The position numbers and the translations under genes are program-made. This document shows positions 22,366 through 49,684 of a stretch of DNA of 64,000 bases, piece by piece (within the stretch, counting starts at the first letter, position 1; the number at the start of each line of letters is the position of its first letter). Under the pieces are notes generated by a model, which saw nothing but the letters and a program-made list of their open reading frames with translations, searched no databases and had not been told where the DNA came from. The stretch is from an uncultured Pseudomonadales bacterium (GTDB lineage: Bacteria; Patescibacteriota; Microgenomatia; UBA1400; PJMF01), in assembly GCA_964583625.1 (NCBI GenBank), contig CAZOVA010000001.1, positions 159,349-223,348 on the forward strand, read 5' to 3'.

Positions 22366-22442
22366 GCGCCCATAGCTCAAGTGGTTAGAGCACCAAGCTT
22401 ATACCTTGGCGGTTCGAGGTTCGAGTCCTTGTGGGCGCACCA
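22366..22442 (+). tRNA. tRNA-Ile, anticodon TAT (UAU; decodes AUA)
   Basis: Acceptor GCGCCCA/TGGGCGC. Ile-like D-arm GCTCAAGTGGTTAGAGC. Anticodon stem CCAAG/CTTGG with loop CTTATAC. T-arm CGAGGTTCGAGTCCTTG. Discriminator A, CCA encoded. Confidence 0.85.
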
Positions 22443-41309: not shown

Positions 41310-41702
41310 TTAAATAAAACGGTAAAACCATAAAATAGCTAAGATCGCGCCCAAACTATCAAAACCGATATCACGAGCAGTCGCAGTTCTTCCTATGACG
41401 AAGCTTTGATGATATTCATCCAAACAAGCATAAAGAAGCGTTAGGAGTAAAGCTAAAAACCATTTGTGCTTTATTTTCCTACCCGTCTGTTTTTCCCACT
41501 GGCTAAAAGCCCTCAGCCACAAAAGACAGAGAAAAGAAAAAACAGCGATATGAGCAGTTTTCTTTAAGATGAAATCTCCCCAAAAAATATCCAAACTAGG
41601 TAAAACTGGTTGCGCAGATAAGAAAAAAATTACTCCCATCCACAAAAAAGGCCAAATAAAGGCTCTAATAGTCGACCAAAAATTCTTCTTGTGATTTTTC
41701 AT
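41310..41702 (-). CDS. VanZ-family membrane protein
   Basis: 4 TM. LDEYHQSFVIGRTATARDIGFD matches VanZ DE.HQ..PGR...D..D. Confidence 0.75.
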   Translation of the reverse strand: MKNHKKNFWSTIRAFIWPFLWMGVIFFLSAQPVLPSLDIFWGDFILKKTAHIAVFSFLCLLWLRAFSQWEKQTGRKIKHKWFLALLLTLLYACLDEYHQSFVIGRTATARDIGFDSLGAILAILWFYRFI

Positions 41703-42921
41703 TTTTGGAAGCTAAATAATTTTGCCAGCTATAATCTAGTAAAATTACTAGGCCCCCTATTATAACTATAATTGCTAAACTCCCAAAGAGTAATTTTTCT
41801 GGAAGGAGACTTTTCGTCTGGAGTTTAGCAGCGGGACTTGTTTCCCAGTCAGTCTCCATCATTGATGAAACAACCACTTTTTCCATTGATTGATAATTGG
41901 TTTTTGGTAAACTAAAAAGCTTATTTTTTTGCCACTGGCTTTGATTGTTTTTTATTGCTAAATCGATCTTAGTTTCTTTTTTATCTTCTTTTTCAGTTTC
42001 AGTCTCTTCGGATATGGAAACGGGTTTTTTAATTTTTTCTTCTAAGATTGTTTTTTCATTTGGGCTATCAATTAATTCGTGCCATTTCCCGAGACTTTCT
42101 ACCATAAGGGCTCCTTTATTTTGGCAAGCAGGATAATCAATTTCTATTTGAGTTTCACCATCAGTATCAAGTAAAAAAACCTTGCCTCCAGTATTAGGAG
42201 CTAAGCCACTGGCAAACTCTATTCGCTTACCAGCATTAGATGGTAAAACTAAGTCTGTTAAAGTCCGACTAGTGCCGTTTTGATTTTGTAATTTAAATCC
42301 ACGCATATTTACCGCAAAACTCGATAAATTTTTTAAGTAAAGCCATTCCTTTTCCCCAGTTTGGGGGCAAGGGTAAAATTCCAAAGCTTGTAATTGAATA
42401 AGTTTTTCTTCTTCTGTTAGTTCCGCTCTTTCTTGACAAAAATAATTACTTTTAGCTTTTGTTGGCAGATCACAGACTTGCCATTTTGTTTCCCCATCGT
42501 TTTTTCGAGCATAACTTTTCCCCATTAAATTACCTGGGTAAGTGATGCTATCAATTAAGTTTTGTTGATTGTCATAAAGATAAATAGTGTCGCCACTATT
42601 ATCCATAATGTTTCCAGTTTCTAAGATAAAAAATTCTTTAGCTTCAATACTAGCTTCTTTGTCCTTAGTCAAAAAACGGATATTGTTTTTGGCGTCAACA
42701 ATTTTGTATTCATGTATTTTTACCGCTAAATTTTGCGGATTATAGATTTCCAGCCATTCTTTTTCTTCACTATTTACTTGAGGATAAGGGAAAAGTTCGT
42801 TAATAATTAAACTAGCTTGGCAGTAGGCAGGATTAAAAAATCGCAGTAAGAGAAAACTTAAAAACAAAAATTTTTTCATCATTAAAAGATTATTGATAAA
42901 AAAATAATAAAAAAATGACAA
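41665..42921 (-). CDS. Secreted/membrane-anchored protein with two lamin-tail-domain (LTD)-like modules
   Basis: Signal peptide. LIINELFPYPQVNSEEKEWLEIYNP and LQALEFYPCPQTGEKEWLYLKN (LTD hallmark INE...EWIEL.N). C-terminal TM anchor. Confidence 0.6.
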   Translation of the reverse strand: MSFFYYFFINNLLMMKKFLFLSFLLLRFFNPAYCQASLIINELFPYPQVNSEEKEWLEIYNPQNLAVKIHEYKIVDAKNNIRFLTKDKEASIEAKEFFILETGNIMDNSGDTIYLYDNQQNLIDSITYPGNLMGKSYARKNDGETKWQVCDLPTKAKSNYFCQERAELTEEEKLIQLQALEFYPCPQTGEKEWLYLKNLSSFAVNMRGFKLQNQNGTSRTLTDLVLPSNAGKRIEFASGLAPNTGGKVFLLDTDGETQIEIDYPACQNKGALMVESLGKWHELIDSPNEKTILEEKIKKPVSISEETETEKEDKKETKIDLAIKNNQSQWQKNKLFSLPKTNYQSMEKVVVSSMMETDWETSPAAKLQTKSLLPEKLLFGSLAIIVIIGGLVILLDYSWQNYLASKNEKSQEEFLVDY

Positions 42922-42977: not shown

Positions 42978-44630
42978 ATGTCAATTAAAACTTTTTCTGT
43001 TGACAGCCCAGTGGCTTATTTTAGTGCTGAATTTGCTGTCGATAATCGTTTACCCATTTATGCTGGCGGCTTAGGTGTCTTAGCTGGAGATATTCTCAAG
43101 CAAGCGGCTGACTTAGAGATGCACATGGTAGGAGTTGGACTTTTATATAAGGGGGAAGAAGCCAAACAGCTCATTACAGCTGAGGGAATTCAAAAGGAAG
43201 AAGATCATAGTTATATTCCAGAGAACAATGGTCTAGAATTGATCCGTGATACTACTGGTAATCCACTTTTTATTAAAGTTCATTTGACTCAGGTTGACGT
43301 TTGGTTACAAATCTGGCGCTATCAGATTGGTAAAACAGTTGCCCTCTACCTTTTAGATCCAGATAATTATCGTAATCATTCACATGAGAGACGTTTGGCT
43401 TGGGCTCTTTATGCTGGTACACAAGAAGAAATTATCAAACAACAATTAGTTTTAGGTATTGGTGGAGTCAAAGCTCTTAAAGCTTTAAATTTAACCCCAG
43501 CCTTATATCACGTCAATGAAGGGCGACCGAGTTTCTTACATTGGCAATTGATTCGCCAAGCCATGGATGATCAAGGTCTTAATTATAAAAAAGCCAAGCA
43601 GACGGCTATTGATAAAACTTACTATACTAATCACACCATTGTCTCGGCTGGTAATCAGACTTATGATCTAGACCTCATGAAAGCTTATTGTAAATATTAT
43701 AGCCAGAAAATGGATATTGATGTCACTACTTTACTTAAAGACGGAACTGATAAAAAAGGCCGCTTTGATGTCACCCTATTTGCTCTTAATACTTCTTGTC
43801 GGGCTTCTAGTGTCAGTTTGCCTCATTTAGCTATTTGTAAAAAACAATGGCCCAAATATAACTGGGTGAATGTCACGAATGCTGTTCACTTTCCCACCTG
43901 GAATGATCAAAGATTTTTAAATTCAGAGGTGACAGATGAAGAATTATGGCATTTTCATCTAGAAAATAAGAAAAACACCGCTCAACTTATCAGCCAAAGA
44001 ACTGGTTTTAGTTATGATCCTAACAGCCTAGTAATTGTTTGGGCTCGTCGCTTTGCAACTTATAAGCAACCAGACTTACTTTTCCGCGATATTGCTCGTT
44101 TGCAACAAATTTTACTTTCCACTAATCGTCCGATTCAATTAATCATGGCAGGCAAAGCGCATGTTTTTGACGAAAACGGCAAGAGAATGATTAGAGAAAT
44201 TATTGGCTATATGACTCAAGATTTGCCAGGAAGAGCGTTATTTGTACCAAACTATAATATGGAAATGGGCGCGGCTTTGACTAGAGGGGCGGATGTTTGG
44301 CTCAATACACCCAAACCAGGAGAAGAAGCTAGTGGCACCAGCGGTATGAAAGCGATTAGTAATGGAGTTTTACAACTGAGTTCTCATGATGGCTGGGCAG
44401 CAGAATTCGATTGGAGTGACGAAAGCACTGGTTGGGCTTTGGATAGTCATAATCTTTATGAAAGCCTGATGTTTTTATTAAAGGACAAAATTATCCCTCT
44501 TTTTTATCAAAGAGACAATCGAGACATCCCGACTAAGTGGTTGCAAATGATGCGCAACTCTATTAAATTGTCCGCTCAGTATAATGCTGAGAGGATGATG
44601 CTGGACTATTGTAATAATCTTTATCCTTGA
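42978..44630 (+). CDS. Alpha-glucan (glycogen/maltodextrin) phosphorylase family protein, short bacterial type
   Basis: N-terminal YFSAEF...IYAGGLGVLAGD...VGLLYK. PLP-lysine motif EASGTSGMKA. Confidence 0.8.
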   Translation: MSIKTFSVDSPVAYFSAEFAVDNRLPIYAGGLGVLAGDILKQAADLEMHMVGVGLLYKGEEAKQLITAEGIQKEEDHSYIPENNGLELIRDTTGNPLFIKVHLTQVDVWLQIWRYQIGKTVALYLLDPDNYRNHSHERRLAWALYAGTQEEIIKQQLVLGIGGVKALKALNLTPALYHVNEGRPSFLHWQLIRQAMDDQGLNYKKAKQTAIDKTYYTNHTIVSAGNQTYDLDLMKAYCKYYSQKMDIDVTTLLKDGTDKKGRFDVTLFALNTSCRASSVSLPHLAICKKQWPKYNWVNVTNAVHFPTWNDQRFLNSEVTDEELWHFHLENKKNTAQLISQRTGFSYDPNSLVIVWARRFATYKQPDLLFRDIARLQQILLSTNRPIQLIMAGKAHVFDENGKRMIREIIGYMTQDLPGRALFVPNYNMEMGAALTRGADVWLNTPKPGEEASGTSGMKAISNGVLQLSSHDGWAAEFDWSDESTGWALDSHNLYESLMFLLKDKIIPLFYQRDNRDIPTKWLQMMRNSIKLSAQYNAERMMLDYCNNLYP

Positions 44631-44653: not shown

Positions 44654-47600
44654 ATGTCTGAACTAGCCTTACATTATGCGGGAATAGATGAAAAAGATTT
44701 TACTTTTAAAAAATCTGCCGACAAGAAAAAACAAAATTCTCAAAAAGAAGCAGAGATAACTGAAGAAGCCGAGGTTAGTCGTGAAATAGATTTTTATCTT
44801 CAACAAATCGACGATGAATGGGAAAAACCGCCTTCGACTTTGGAGGTTTTAAGCCCGGTTTTAGTTAAAGAAAAAGAGTTTTTTTCTGAGAAAGAAAAAG
44901 ATGTTGATATTAGTGATAAAATTGCTCAAGCAATTAATGATCAGTTCATCGCTAATAAGATAGAAACCAACTCAGAGGCAACTAGGTTTTTAACTGACCT
45001 GGGACAAAGAATGATTGAGGGGACAGAACTAAGTCAATTGCGGGTTTTTATTATTAAAAAAGGAGAAACAATTAATGCGAGTGCTTTCCCCGATGGGACA
45101 ATTTTTTTTACTCAGGCTTTGCTCAACTGTTTAGACACTGTTGATGAGATTGGAGCTGTTCTAGCTCACGAAATAGGTCATCTACTTAATAAAACCACCG
45201 TGAGCACTTATGGCAGTGAAAACTCAATTGGTCTAGGCTGGGCGCATGAAATGGCCAGTGACATCACTTCTCAATCTTTATTAGAAAAAGTTGGGCTTAA
45301 CTCTGGTGCTTTAGTGTCTGCTTTGAAAAAAATTGATGCAAAAGGCACAAAAGATGATACGTCAAGAAATAAAAGAGATATTGTTCATCAAAGTGCTCAA
45401 GCTAGAGCCTTTGAGTTTAAATTGGTTACGCAAAAACTAGACTCTCACACCAGCGATATTGATCAAACCCCCAAAGAACAATATGACTTTCTGCGCTCAG
45501 CAGAGATCCAGCCGACCAATTTTGAAATTTTGAAAAAAACTATCGATTTACGAAGCGAAGCTTTAATGACTCGAGTGCTAGAGAAGATGTCAGCCGAAGA
45601 CTTGGTTAAAACTAATCGTTTTTTGAGTGAATCTTTGAGTAAAAAGATCGAAGAGGAACAAGGTTTTTACGAGGAAACCCAAATTTATTATGATTTAGAA
45701 TCTGCTTTTATTCTTCAGACTAAAAAATCTTTAGATCAACTTTTGCAAAGAAGACTGGTCGCAGAATTGGATATCGATGAATCAGTGGCTAAGGCTATTT
45801 TTCTTATTAATGGAACTTCTAGAGAGTTTAATGATAAAGGATTAAGAGAGTTACAGCTTTTTAATTCATTTGAAGAAGTTTTGCAGGGTTTGGACGACCT
45901 ATCTTTTTGGGATAACTTTTTCAAACAAAAGAGAAATTTTTCTCCCTCTTTGCAGAAATTACTTTTCCAACCTTCGTCATATCATTATATAAATAAAGCT
46001 CCTAGAGCTCAATATCAAGAAATTTTTTTTGATCCCAAACGGTGTTTAGTAGCAGGAATGTTGAATTCTTCCTTCTATAGTTTAGAGCGTCAAAGCCCAG
46101 AAGAAGGAACTTTCTTTATTGATCCTAAAAAGTTTTTTATTCTATTTGATAGAATTTCTAATGAGCTCAATGAAGATATTAAAAAACATTTAATCGCAAG
46201 TTTTTTCTTTTTTTATTTTTATTCTAATTCTTTGGAAAATAGAGCAAAAATTTTCAGTTATGAAGAGCAAAAAGACTTTTTTACTGGGCTCAAAGCTAGA
46301 GGAATTAAATTTAATTTTATTAAGGAAAGAACAGACTCTGGTGAAAAAGGCCTAGAATTTGTAGAAAGCTTTTTTTCATCAAATACAATCGAAGCTTGGC
46401 GATTAGCTTATGGTGAATCAGCAGAACAAGACAATGAAGATGAGGGAATAGAAAAACTCTTTCAAGACTTTATTGATCAGCTCTCTTTTTTGGGGGGACA
46501 AAAAAATAGCGGTTCTTCCAAATCTTCACCTAAAGGTTTTACTCGTCAACTATCAGATTTTACGGAAAAAGTTCAAAATTTGCGCGTAAAAAGAGATATT
46601 TCTGATGAGAGTTGGGAAAAAATAATAACTGTTCTTAAAGAGAAACTGACAGCTCTTCATTTACCAGCCAGGGATCGCATTCTTGATCACGAAAACTTTT
46701 TTAGGCCAGTAGGACTAAAACATCAAATTGAAAATGAATCAGTTCAGCAGGAAAACCAAAAAGTTTTTGAATTTAAGACAGCTCTTTATATTTTCACCGT
46801 TTTGGATTGTCGAGAAAAAAACCAGCAAACTAGCCGACTAGCTAAGTTTTTAGCCGAATCGGATCTAAACTTTGAGACTTATGACTGGAAACAGCTTATT
46901 TATTTACTTCAGGGTATTTGGGCAAAAAAATTTCAAATGAGAACCTTTTTACAATCGGAACTTGGGTCAGAGGGAACTTTGCCTCCTTTTGGGTTTAGTG
47001 GGAACTATGATTTTACTCAATTGGAGAGTTTGTTACCAATTAAAATTCTTTTGGAAAAAATTGATCAAGCTTTTGTGCCCGCCGAAAACTTGGAAAAATT
47101 TTTAGTGTTAATAAAAGAGAAAAAAGACTTTTTAAATAATTTTTATCTTCCGAACTCGCCTCATATCTCTCCTGATGATGAGAATCTTTTTGATGACTCT
47201 TGGCACGAAATTTATTTTTGGAAAAATGAAAGAGAAAATCTTCTTTCTTTAATTCAAAATCTTGATCTTAGTAAAGAAAAAGCGACCGATTTCCCCACGA
47301 TTATTAATCTAATCACAGAGATCCTACCCAATGATGCTTCTTTGTCAGAGGTAAAAAATAAACTAACTTTGGCTTATCTGCGACAGAAAGAAATTCCCTT
47401 TGATCAAAGAGCAGACTTTTTCTTTCAGCAGACCGATTCAGAACTAGAGGGGGTAGAAATTCTAGCTAGCGAGATTGACGACTTAGCTGTTTATAAAAAT
47501 TTTAAAAGTAAAATAGACGCTTATCGAAAACGTTGGCAAAAAGAAAAAAAAGATCTTTCTTTGATAGCCTTAGCAGACTTTTTTTCCAGTTTTTTTAAAG

Positions 47601-49684
47601 ATCAAATTAAGGTTTTTCAAACAGCCATTCCCGAGCAAAAATTTATCAAAGAGCAGAATAATCAGCTACTCCTTCGATGGCTTGAGCTTTATGATGATAG
47701 ATTTGATCAAAAAACAGAAAAATTTTTTTTCAAAAGAGAAGGAGGACTTCAGATTAGATCTTTGGCAGATATTTATATTACCTTAAATAATTTGTCCGCT
47801 AAAGAGCGTGGCTTATTAATTAATAAGCTACTCAATGACACCAATGGCTCTCTCACTAGCCAAGAAAGACGCTTTCAGTTAGCAAAAATTGTCGACCAAG
47901 TAATTAATCTTGATCAAGATCAATTTATCACTCAAATGGTCACTATTTTAGTTGGTAAAGGAAAGGCAGAAAGCATTAGCTTGCCCTTGCTAGCTCTTTT
48001 TCAACCACTAATATTTAAAAATTTACAAACAGAAAACCTGCAGGCTTCTCGCTTTTTGAATGATATTAGAGAACAAACAGTGACTGAAATTCAAACTAAA
48101 AGAAAATTGACCAAAAAGGAAGCTGAAACAGTAATAAAACAGGAACTAATTGAACCATTGCTTTCTTCAGAAAAAAGTCTGATTAATGAAACGGTCTTGT
48201 CTTTTGATCCAGAATATAGTGAGAGACAAGATCTAGCAAGAAAGATTGATTATATAGCTAATAGCTCCACGAGAGACATAACTTTCTTTGGGCCAGATTA
48301 TATTCATCAACCAGAATCAAGAGCGGCTCTTTTAGCTCAGGAAAGTAATGAAGCTTATCATTTTATTTTTCAAACCCTTCTAGCTAAAATCAAACTTTTG
48401 GAAGAAACCGCAGAGAGGGAACCAGAAGCAGAAAAGGTGGTTGAAAATCAACAAATTGAAGCTATTGTTGGGAGTTTGGAGGCGGGCGGAGCAGTTATGG
48501 TGCGCCAATTGCAATTAGCAACCCAATTTGTCAAATTTGACTCTGCTTGGCAAAAAAGATTGAGTCGGACTTTGGATAGTAATCCAGGATTAAGTAAACT
48601 GGAGGCTTGGCAAAATCTTTACCATTGGACCATTGAGGTCAAACCAGAAAATGAGCAAGAGAAAAAAGAGCAATTGGAATTACAGGAGCTCTTTCAGCAT
48701 TACCGTTTGGGTCAAAAAGTGGGCGGAGGTAGTTTGAATACTATCTTTGAACTCATTCCTTTGAACCCCGAAAGTCATCCACCGGCAGTGATTAGAATTC
48801 AGAACCCCAATGTAGCCGCCAATGTTATGGATATGTCTCAAACTCTAGCTGAAGCCTATGACGCTCTAAAAGAGAATCCCAGTCTGAAAAAAGAAGCTCG
48901 GATTGGAGCGATGATCAATGATCTATCGAGAAAATGGTGCTTATCCGACATTAGAGACCCTCGTTTTCTAGATGATGATAATCAATTTCGACTGGTTTTA
49001 GCTGCTTTTCGTCCTAGTGATGAAGGAGCAGTTGTCTCTGCTCCAGAATTAGGGCTGACTCAGGCTAAAGTTAAAGTGGAACAATTAGCTCCAGGGGAAA
49101 CTTTGAATAAACTTTTAACTAGCCCAGACATCAGCGAAGAAGACAAAAATCGTTTGAGAAAAACCTTTTGTGAGCTTTTTCTTCATCAGTTGGATTTTGA
49201 AAAAAACAAAGTAGTGAACAGTCAAGGGAGAGAAGAAATTATTGTCCATTCCGATCAACATTTGGGAAATTATATGGCAGAGATTTTACCAGATGGTTCA
49301 ATTAATTTTTCTGTGATTGATCGCAATATGTATTTGCATTTGGAGGCGGATGATGTGCAAGTTATAAAAACTCTCTTATCTGAAAAGGGTGGCGGTTTAG
49401 AGTTTGTCCGGAAATTGGTTGACCGTGTTTTAGATATTAATAAAATTCTTAATCCAGTAGATCGTAAAAAAACTCAAGACCAGATTCGAAAAAAACTAAT
49501 TTTAAATGGGGTGAAAAATATTTTCCACCGTCGTCAAGGAGATGATCTAGAACAATTACAAATTATTTTTGAACAACTAGCTTTGCAGAACTATGAGATT
49601 CCTCTCAACTTGCAACTGATGATTCGTAATACCACCGCTTATAAAAATATCAAAGCTGAGTTGGACCGGGCAGAAAAAGACTAA
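44654..49684 (+). CDS. Giant (1676 aa) cytoplasmic multidomain protein: N-terminal M48-type Zn-metallopeptidase domain ... long helical middle ... C-terminal ABC1/UbiB-type atypical protein-kinase-like domain
   Basis: M48 signature NASAFPDGTIFFTQALL..DEIGAVLAHEIGHLL plus downstream HEMASD (third ligand) at ~44.95-45.3 kb. ABC1 motifs VRQLQLATQ..LDSNP, LGQKVGGGSLNTIFE, AVIRIQNP, HSDQHLGN...SVIDRN at ~48.45-49.45 kb. No TM segments. Confidence 0.65.
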   Translation: MSELALHYAGIDEKDFTFKKSADKKKQNSQKEAEITEEAEVSREIDFYLQQIDDEWEKPPSTLEVLSPVLVKEKEFFSEKEKDVDISDKIAQAINDQFIANKIETNSEATRFLTDLGQRMIEGTELSQLRVFIIKKGETINASAFPDGTIFFTQALLNCLDTVDEIGAVLAHEIGHLLNKTTVSTYGSENSIGLGWAHEMASDITSQSLLEKVGLNSGALVSALKKIDAKGTKDDTSRNKRDIVHQSAQARAFEFKLVTQKLDSHTSDIDQTPKEQYDFLRSAEIQPTNFEILKKTIDLRSEALMTRVLEKMSAEDLVKTNRFLSESLSKKIEEEQGFYEETQIYYDLESAFILQTKKSLDQLLQRRLVAELDIDESVAKAIFLINGTSREFNDKGLRELQLFNSFEEVLQGLDDLSFWDNFFKQKRNFSPSLQKLLFQPSSYHYINKAPRAQYQEIFFDPKRCLVAGMLNSSFYSLERQSPEEGTFFIDPKKFFILFDRISNELNEDIKKHLIASFFFFYFYSNSLENRAKIFSYEEQKDFFTGLKARGIKFNFIKERTDSGEKGLEFVESFFSSNTIEAWRLAYGESAEQDNEDEGIEKLFQDFIDQLSFLGGQKNSGSSKSSPKGFTRQLSDFTEKVQNLRVKRDISDESWEKIITVLKEKLTALHLPARDRILDHENFFRPVGLKHQIENESVQQENQKVFEFKTALYIFTVLDCREKNQQTSRLAKFLAESDLNFETYDWKQLIYLLQGIWAKKFQMRTFLQSELGSEGTLPPFGFSGNYDFTQLESLLPIKILLEKIDQAFVPAENLEKFLVLIKEKKDFLNNFYLPNSPHISPDDENLFDDSWHEIYFWKNERENLLSLIQNLDLSKEKATDFPTIINLITEILPNDASLSEVKNKLTLAYLRQKEIPFDQRADFFFQQTDSELEGVEILASEIDDLAVYKNFKSKIDAYRKRWQKEKKDLSLIALADFFSSFFKDQIKVFQTAIPEQKFIKEQNNQLLLRWLELYDDRFDQKTEKFFFKREGGLQIRSLADIYITLNNLSAKERGLLINKLLNDTNGSLTSQERRFQLAKIVDQVINLDQDQFITQMVTILVGKGKAESISLPLLALFQPLIFKNLQTENLQASRFLNDIREQTVTEIQTKRKLTKKEAETVIKQELIEPLLSSEKSLINETVLSFDPEYSERQDLARKIDYIANSSTRDITFFGPDYIHQPESRAALLAQESNEAYHFIFQTLLAKIKLLEETAEREPEAEKVVENQQIEAIVGSLEAGGAVMVRQLQLATQFVKFDSAWQKRLSRTLDSNPGLSKLEAWQNLYHWTIEVKPENEQEKKEQLELQELFQHYRLGQKVGGGSLNTIFELIPLNPESHPPAVIRIQNPNVAANVMDMSQTLAEAYDALKENPSLKKEARIGAMINDLSRKWCLSDIRDPRFLDDDNQFRLVLAAFRPSDEGAVVSAPELGLTQAKVKVEQLAPGETLNKLLTSPDISEEDKNRLRKTFCELFLHQLDFEKNKVVNSQGREEIIVHSDQHLGNYMAEILPDGSINFSVIDRNMYLHLEADDVQVIKTLLSEKGGGLEFVRKLVDRVLDINKILNPVDRKKTQDQIRKKLILNGVKNIFHRRQGDDLEQLQIIFEQLALQNYEIPLNLQLMIRNTTAYKNIKAELDRAEKD

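Follow-up and report, generated by a model that had tools for sequence, protein, structure and literature searches.

Members of the UbiB/ABC1 family have been described as protein kinases, lipid kinases, ATPases or pseudokinases, and their function is unresolved (PMC8956952; bioRxiv 10.1101/149823). The question matters for coenzyme Q disease and for plant stress biology. In Arabidopsis plastoglobules and Synechocystis cyanoglobules, ABC1 kinases co-localize with a soluble zinc metalloprotease of family M48 (PGM48, AT3G27110; sll1280 in Synechocystis) (PMC12223511), and PGM48 is co-expressed with ABC1K7 and ABC1K3 (bioRxiv 10.1101/2021.02.05.430006). The same two families very probably meet in one polypeptide of 1676 amino acids (aa) that is encoded in a 64,000-nucleotide stretch of DNA from an uncultured bacterium (assembly GCA_964583625.1, contig CAZOVA010000001.1, positions 159,349 to 223,348 of the forward strand), hereafter called the window. 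This polypeptide, the window protein, carries a soluble M48 protease core near its N terminus, a long helical scaffold in the middle and a divergent UbiB-like domain at its C terminus.

The hallmarks of ABC1 proteins in the literature are a KxGQ motif and an alanine triad (PMC8956952). In COQ8A, the Gln of KxGQ holds a water molecule that has been proposed as the nucleophile of ATP hydrolysis, and when an Ala of the nucleotide loop is exchanged for Gly, ATP binding, ATPase activity and cis-autophosphorylation all increase (bioRxiv 10.1101/149823; PMC8956952). Both features have counterparts in the window protein. A literature search for a fusion of M48 with ABC1, for the family described here, or for UbiB in the Candidate Phyla Radiation found no paper, and an earlier model-made reading of the window (hereafter the original prediction) likewise knew of no description of a soluble M48 domain linked to such a kinase. 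The window protein represents a new family and a new architecture made from two known catalytic superfamilies.

The two catalytic domains and the scaffold between them

The 1676 residues are encoded by a single uninterrupted open reading frame (ORF) on the plus strand, from an ATG at 44654 to a stop codon ending at 49684. Several independent sequencing runs yield the same protein, unchanged, on a total of 18 contigs, and gene order is the same at the four places shown, which come from four different runs. Because the identical protein recurs on contigs of independent runs with the same neighbors, an assembly chimera is excluded. The original prediction, made from the letters of the DNA, had proposed a one-ORF fusion and had raised the chance of a chimera; the fusion is real, and all motifs quoted for it lie at the expected residues of the protein (Table 1).

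The N-terminal domain matches Pfam Peptidase_M48 (PF01435) over aa 113–185 with 45.8 bits (E 8e-12), well above the gathering score of 20.3, and the same family is matched by all 29 relatives sampled. Searched by sequence against the PDB, the window protein finds 3c37, a soluble M48 peptidase of Geobacter (E 2.7e-7), and BepA (E 1e-3); a family profile built from seven sequences raises these matches to E 1.4e-14 and E 1.8e-7, respectively. The zinc-binding motif lies in the segment AFPDGTIFFTQALL...AVLAHEIGHLL, with HEIGH at aa 172–176. In the seven-sequence profile, EMASD is aligned to yEnqAD of 3c37 and to nEqEAD of BepA, so that the Glu originally proposed as third zinc ligand falls in the helix that carries it in both known structures. 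H172, E173, H176, E199, D203 and R251 are invariant in the 113 full-length relatives that bear HExxH, and the site is degenerate in 3 of 116. Since the catalytic residues are kept in 113 of 113 and only these three sites are degenerate, the protease site is probably active in the window protein. The position of H245 is presumably that of the M48 “HP...R” motif which carries the regulatory His of BepA. That His of BepA acts as an inhibitory zinc ligand (the “His switch”). Foldseek comparison of an AlphaFold2 model places 3c37 first (E 1e-3, probability 1.0) and also finds BepA, although the model is of low confidence (predicted local distance difference test, pLDDT, 60–83 in the core and 51.5 overall).

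The membrane-embedded members of M48 (HtpX, Ste24 and Oma1) have transmembrane helices around the protease core, a trait that the window protein lacks. The NCBIfam models of HtpX score 11–18 bits against it, with cutoffs of 275–422. The Kyte-Doolittle hydropathy averaged over 19 residues peaks at 1.23, with neither a membrane segment nor a hydrophobic leader, in line with the predicted difference from HtpX. Judged by its sequence, the window protein is soluble and presumably cytoplasmic.

The identity of the C-terminal domain emerges from relatives, profiles and fold comparison. Pfam ABC1 (PF03109) is absent from the whole window protein and from its isolated C terminus even at E<=10, and no kinase family of Pfam or NCBIfam and no kinase among PDB sequences matches the C terminus. 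End-to-end homologs, however, score above the ABC1 cutoff of 22.9 bits (P0007, 59.9; P0003, 27.2), as do further relatives (P0122, 72.4; P0137, 71.7; P0135, 71.6), and ABC1 is matched at E<=0.01 by 13 of 29 relatives in a sample spread over the family. When a profile of 123 domain sequences is compared with E. coli UbiB using hhalign, the two align over 251 columns with a probability of 96% (E 4.5e-9); a profile of six sequences reaches 72% (E 3.3e-5). HMMER profiles of 6, 7 and 29 sequences never reach ADCK3 in the PDB. The predicted structure has a kinase-like fold with the N-terminal helical extension specific to UbiB, and its 12 best Foldseek matches are all of the UbiB family (COQ8A/ADCK3, MSMEG_1954 and Rv3197; E 4e-9 to 6e-6), with the next family at 2.5e-4. 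TIGR01982, the UbiB equivalog model, does not match the window protein. Because even the best relative reaches no more than 45.2 bits, with the cutoff at 487.55, the C-terminal domain is, on sequence grounds, a divergent sister of UbiB and not a UbiB ortholog. Thus, of the two assignments originally made, the M48 core is found by a profile search of the window protein itself, whereas the ABC1/UbiB domain stays below the Pfam threshold there and is supported through homologs, hhalign and fold.

The motif equivalences with UbiB that had been proposed by eye are reproduced in the hhalign alignment to E. coli UbiB. A literal KxGQ is not present; the window protein reads RxLQ, with Leu in place of Gly, and the Gln is kept. 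This residue, Q1287, aligns with Q73 of UbiB and is Gln in 123 of 123 domains, and position 1284 is Arg in 117 and Lys in 5 of them. The Ala-rich loop (AAAS) is replaced by GGGS, so the family naturally combines a KxGQ-type Gln with a Gly-rich loop. At the place of the ATP-binding Lys of strand β3 (K153 in UbiB), the window protein has R1381 (48794–48796); over the 123 domains, this column contains Lys in 102 and Arg in 21 and nothing else. The catalytic loop HxDxHxGN and the metal-binding Asp of the DFG motif are both found. Q1287, E1476, N1539 and D1556 are invariant in 123 of 123 domains, R1557 is kept in 122 and D1534 in 120. Because they are invariant or nearly so, the residues predicted to handle metal and phosphate are under strong selection, and the domain is probably nucleotide-active. 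Seven of the 21 members with Arg in β3, the window protein included, read HSDQH and not HSDPH (Q1535, 49256–49258), which suggests that the two substitutions co-vary within one clade.

The region between the domains (aa 261–1200) matches no Pfam family and no PDB sequence. In an AlphaFold2 model of aa 1–1140, made from an alignment of seven sequences, the middle is predicted as all-helical with low confidence (mean pLDDT of the whole model 51.5). Foldseek retrieves karyopherins, CAND1 and similar solenoids with TM-scores <=0.18; these matches are unreliable because the scores are so low and the model is poor. Conservation over 116 relatives is low at aa ~330–880 and clearly higher at aa ~900–1130, where W1009, D1039, K1058, L1060, G1065 and F1121 are near-invariant. 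This conserved module (aa 881–1140) likewise matches no known family in Pfam or among PDB sequences. The description of the middle as some 1100 aa of helical sequence without a match holds, but with this module the middle is not uniformly featureless. A marginal similarity to the TOG/HEAT-repeat domain of Stu2 (E 0.02–0.03) was seen at family profile positions 279–485 (about aa 300–520 of the window protein), which weakly suggests a HEAT-like beginning of the scaffold.

Although the scaffold drifts in sequence, its length does not. HExxH and the catalytic loop lie a median of 1272 aa apart (interquartile range 1251–1290, n=83), and their separation is 1282–1284 aa where the same cassette is embedded in proteins of 4078 and 5166 aa. 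Because the spacing of the active sites is held despite this drift, it points to a cassette of M48 core, scaffold and UbiB-like domain that would form a unit of defined geometry and not two enzymes on a floppy tether.

Table 1. Features of the window protein and their positions in the window.
Feature	Residues (aa)	Position	Strand	Basis and remarks
Whole ORF (single polypeptide of M48 protease, helical scaffold, UbiB-like domain)	1676 + stop	44654..49684	+	
Poorly conserved, charged N-terminal leader	1–90	44654..44923	+	Conservation profile; pLDDT <50; no hydrophobic signal-peptide-like stretch
Soluble M48 zinc-metalloprotease core	91–260	44924..45433	+	Pfam PF01435; family profile against 3c37/BepA; Foldseek
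HEIGH	172–176	45167..45181	+	Zinc-binding HExxH with catalytic Glu; present in 113/116 full-length relatives
EMASD	199–203	45248..45262	+	Glu as third zinc ligand; conserved Asp of the M48 “E..AD” helix
HQSAQAR	245–251	45386..45406	+	Conserved His/Arg motif at C-terminal end of protease core; H245 107/113, R251 113/113
Fast-evolving all-helical scaffold of conserved length	261–880	45434..47293	+	Low conservation; low-confidence all-helical AlphaFold2 model
Conserved helical module	881–1140	47294..48073	+	Conservation profile, 116 sequences
Variable linker with insertion in the window protein	1141–1200	48074..48253	+	Conservation profile; pLDDT <50
Divergent UbiB/ABC1-like, protein-kinase-like domain including N-terminal helical extension	1201–1676	48254..49681	+	
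RQLQ	1284–1287	48503..48514	+	Counterpart of KxGQ; aligned to UbiB K70-F-G-Q73
GGGS	1357–1360	48722..48733	+	Gly-rich nucleotide loop; aligned to the Ala-rich loop ASAS(I) of UbiB; near-invariant in family
VIRIQNPN	1379–1386	48788..48811	+	Strand β3; aligned to UbiB VVIKVIRP
HSDQHLGN	1532–1539	49247..49270	+	Catalytic loop; aligned to UbiB HADMHPGN and Rv3197 HGDAHPGN
IDRN	1555–1558	49316..49327	+	Counterpart of the DFG metal-binding motif; aligned to UbiB IDCG

Family, distribution and gene context

The window protein is not a one-off: its family comprises 411 clusters or more. When 1.84 billion cluster representatives were searched exhaustively with an HMMER profile of aa 500–1673, 572 proteins were returned at E<=1e-3, among them 411 cluster representatives at E<=1e-30. 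Since only 572 proteins were returned in total, canonical ABC1 proteins were not pulled in. Among the 150 matches listed, most are 1500–1700 aa long, with the match starting near residue 450, and the full-length members that were sampled share the architecture of M48 core, scaffold and UbiB-like domain. Word-indexed searches gave 7 matches with the full protein, 5 with the full alignment and 2 with the C-terminal alignment; these are too few for a deep alignment, and the family size was therefore taken from the exhaustive search.

The family is found mostly in ultra-small bacteria. A pattern-limited scan with the C-terminal alignment over one genome per GTDB species gave 19 loci, 7 of which encode proteins of 1512–1658 aa with HExxH near residue 140–200. 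Titles among the 19 name Patescibacteria, Saccharibacteria, Gracilibacteria, Omnitrophota, Elusimicrobia and a deltaproteobacterium, and several are titled “uncultured Gammaproteobacteria” or “Limisphaerales”, titles that are unverified. One homolog is labeled Microgenomates, and one member carries an automatic “AarF/ABC1/UbiB” label only.

The cassette also occurs within giant proteins. In Omnitrophota, an ORF of 4558 aa (L020; JADFZM010000015.1, 567–14240, plus strand) embeds it, from M48 to ABC1, between an FHA domain (aa 1308–1360) on one side and an ARMT1-like damage-control phosphatase (3491–3738) plus an S-adenosylmethionine-dependent methyltransferase (4066–4164) on the other. Other giants are L025, with an ORF of at least 5688 aa, P0126 (5166 aa) and P0135 (4078 aa).

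In the window, the ORF starts 24 nucleotides past the stop codon of a gene of the glycogen phosphorylase family (glgP) and ends 153 nucleotides before the gene for polynucleotide phosphorylase (pnp). A conserved neighborhood with these two genes, which the original prediction had put forward as a check, was looked for and rejected: glgP and pnp flank the gene only in the window organism, and the neighbors vary, with SecA and a carbohydrate kinase for P0004 and MreB for P0005. At 10 further loci, 50 flanking ORFs were compared, and each Pfam family among them occurs at two loci at most. Housekeeping genes (tRNA synthetases, polynucleotide phosphorylase, SecA, MreB and GroEL) make up the flanks, and a search with PADLOC for a role in defense gave no match. 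Split versions of the gene had been suggested as a second check, and no genuine one was found. The sole candidate, L009, appears as an M48 gene of 1034 aa followed by an ABC1 gene of 506 aa; it was rejected as a frameshift of one nucleotide in a conserved segment, after which the homologous reading continues in the other frame. The break lies at 3220–3350 of the contig (Logan, SRR22388335) and points to a sequencing error or to a pseudogene of recent origin. Because there is no conserved neighbor and no PADLOC match, and because the sole split is a frameshift, the protein is self-contained.

Three further observations concern the surroundings of the ORF. In one sample (L002, 1751–3445), the phosphorylase is 564 aa long, compared with 550 aa in the window (42978–44630), and its gene shares 8 nucleotides with the start of the large ORF, so that the junction varies at strain level. 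Upstream of the phosphorylase gene, on the minus strand, lie the slightly overlapping genes of a lamin-tail-domain (LTD) protein (41665–42921) and a VanZ-like protein (41310–41702). Further away, the window contains a tRNA-Ile gene (22366–22442, plus strand) with the anticodon TAT (UAU). Most bacteria decode AUA with a lysidine-modified CAU tRNA, and a tRNA-Ile with UAU would be an uncommon arrangement.

Proposed nucleotide control of proteolysis and its alternatives

In the reading we favor, the three parts would work as one machine. The UbiB-like domain would bind ATP and probably hydrolyze it or autophosphorylate, its nucleotide state would be passed on through the rigid helical scaffold, and this state would gate the access of substrates to the M48 active site or activate it. 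One possible route would be the displacement of the conserved His245, in parallel to the His switch of BepA. The window protein would then be a nucleotide-regulated protease built on a kinase-like module and not on an AAA+ module. That the parts act as one unit is argued by the constant spacing, by the lack of a genuine split and by the lack of a conserved neighbor to supply a partner. The identity and the architecture of the fusion are in our view very likely correct, whereas the specific mechanism, a nucleotide-regulated cytoplasmic protease, is put forward tentatively; taking architecture and mechanism together, we would give a blended figure of roughly 0.5.

Several points weigh against this mechanism. 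Contact between the protease and the kinase-like domain is seen in none of the models, which cover parts of the protein and are poor for its N-terminal and middle regions (mean pLDDT 51.5). Exchange of the β3 Lys for Arg is a classic kinase-inactivating mutation. Because the window protein has Arg there, its UbiB-like domain might only bind nucleotide or might be inactive. The fusion itself shows functional linkage and not allosteric coupling, and the two domains could act one after the other on a shared substrate. The equivalence of H245 to the His of this switch in BepA is itself presumptive. In addition, whether COQ8 acts as an ATPase or as a kinase is still debated (PMC8956952; bioRxiv 10.1101/149823), so the analogy with COQ8 is on uncertain ground.

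The alternative that survives best is that the two domains are independent enzymes tethered to a shared target without allosteric coupling, either to mark a substrate by phosphorylation and then cut it or to act jointly at a membrane or lipid surface, as has been proposed for ABC1 kinases and PGM48 on plastoglobules. This would fit the plastoglobules and cyanoglobules, where ABC1 kinases and the M48 protease are co-localized and co-expressed as separate proteins, and the FHA domain, ARMT1-like phosphatase and methyltransferase added in the Omnitrophota giant would suit a role in phospho-signaling or modification. A Gly-rich loop also favors phosphotransfer in COQ8A mutants (PMC8956952; bioRxiv 10.1101/149823). 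Conversely, in the solved UbiB proteins the KxGQ domain blocks the access of protein substrates (PMC8956952), and its counterpart with the invariant Gln is kept here. The tight spacing of about 1270 residues suggests a defined geometry and not a loose tether, membrane segments are absent from the window protein, and for the lineages that carry the family no biology of lipid droplets or prenyl lipids has been established. Tethered enzymes are conceivable, although we would not expect this to be the answer.

We find it rather doubtful that the C-terminal domain, at least in the subclade of the window protein, is a pseudo-enzyme that serves as a sensor of nucleotide or another ligand or as a structural lid for the protease. 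Arg at β3, shared by 21 of 123 domains, and HSDQH for HSDPH in seven would agree with a loss of catalysis, as would the score of the window protein below every Pfam kinase threshold. However, the window protein retains the Asp and Asn of the catalytic loop, the metal-binding Asp, the Gln of the active site and the Gly-rich loop, and these features are near-invariant in the family. Because the β3 column contains only Lys or Arg, the positive charge appears to be selected there, which fits the binding of phosphate.

A generic kinase-like domain of the RIO, APH or Hanks kind, without a specific relation to UbiB/ABC1, is quite unlikely here. The window protein itself has no Pfam ABC1 match, Pfam APH is also touched by 4 of 29 relatives, the literal KxGQ and the Ala-rich loop are missing, and HMMER profiles miss ADCK3. 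Against this, relatives match Pfam ABC1 with up to 72 bits, the 12 best Foldseek matches are all UbiB-family proteins before the next family appears at 2.5e-4, and the hhalign alignment to UbiB (96%, 251 columns) includes the Gln of the KxGQ region.

Even less probable is a secreted or injected effector or toxin of ultra-small episymbionts that would act against their hosts. The protein is large with a fast-evolving middle, the family lies, by record titles (Patescibacteria, Saccharibacteria, Gracilibacteria and Omnitrophota), in lineages with a host-dependent lifestyle, and giant ORFs of Omnitrophota have been linked to host interaction (PMC10066038). However, there is no hydrophobic leader or membrane segment and no PADLOC match, the flanks are housekeeping genes with no conserved secretion, immunity or mobile-element neighbor, and strong purifying selection acts on both catalytic cores in hundreds of clusters. 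Finally, the reading that assembly or gene calling has joined two genes by mistake, as the two genes called at L009 might suggest, is refuted by the 18 contigs with an identical ORF, by the single-base frameshift behind the L009 break, by HExxH in 113 of 116 full-length relatives and Pfam M48 in 29 of 29 sampled, and by the 411 family representatives.

Comparison with known systems

The assignment gives two catalytic domains to one large unannotated protein of small Patescibacteria-type genomes. More broadly, the fusion may show what the poorly understood UbiB/ABC1 kinase family works with: conserved across hundreds of lineages, it names a soluble M48 protease as functional partner for a UbiB-like domain, and this clue agrees with the independent co-localization and co-expression of PGM48 and ABC1 kinases. 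The Ala-to-Gly change that is known to switch the behavior of COQ8A exists here naturally, and in a protein free of membrane segments nucleotide-dependent proteolysis is directly testable. Specialists of UbiB and COQ8 should find it useful, and somewhat surprising, that the protein is soluble, is fused to such a partner and has a Gly-rich loop by nature, with the function itself being inferred. A further reading, which we consider unlikely, is that the cassette founds a class of its own among energy-dependent proteases, with a zinc metalloprotease controlled by a kinase-like ATPase and not by an AAA+ ring. In that case, partnership with M48 proteases would be the ancestral job of the UbiB/ABC1 family; this would unify the fusion with the PGM48–ABC1K pairing of plastoglobules and would make it a soluble and tractable system for the biochemistry of UbiB proteins.

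Among M48 proteins, BepA (YfgC) of E. coli and 3c37 are the best sequence matches of the N-terminal domain and the best fold matches of its low-confidence model. As in BepA, a helical domain follows the protease, and the protein is not embedded in the membrane. BepA, however, is a periplasmic protein of ~490 aa with a tetratricopeptide repeat (TPR) domain and no nucleotide-binding domain, whereas the window protein lacks a hydrophobic leader and has a helical part of ~1000 aa without a detectable TPR signature. Between the HExxH helix and the Glu helix, its loop is ~25–35 residues shorter than that of 3c37 or BepA.

With UbiB/ABC1 proteins (E. coli UbiB; human COQ8A/ADCK3, structures 4PED and 5I35; Rv3197 of M. 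tuberculosis; MSMEG_1954 of M. smegmatis), the C-terminal domain shares the columns of the Gln, the nucleotide loop, β3, HxDxHxGN and the DFG Asp. It differs in reading RxLQ for KxGQ, GGGS for AAAS, DRN for DFG and Arg for the β3 Lys. It also has no transmembrane helix, is fused to a protease through a scaffold of 1000 aa and shows no evident link to quinone synthesis.

The general design proposed for the window protein is that of ATP-dependent proteases of the FtsH type, in which a nucleotide-hydrolyzing module and a zinc metalloprotease share one chain. The window protein has no AAA+ domain, its protease belongs to another family and its nucleotide module is kinase-like; this analogy stands behind the mechanism favored above, in which coupling of the two modules is hypothetical. 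The PGM48–ABC1K pair brings together the same two protein families, functionally associated there and fused here (PMC12223511; PMC8956952). Plants and cyanobacteria have them as separate proteins on droplets of prenyl lipid, and the lineages with the fusion are not known to have such droplets. Compared at the level of families and not by orthology, the window protein can be seen as a covalent, “Rosetta-stone” form of the PGM48–ABC1K pairing.

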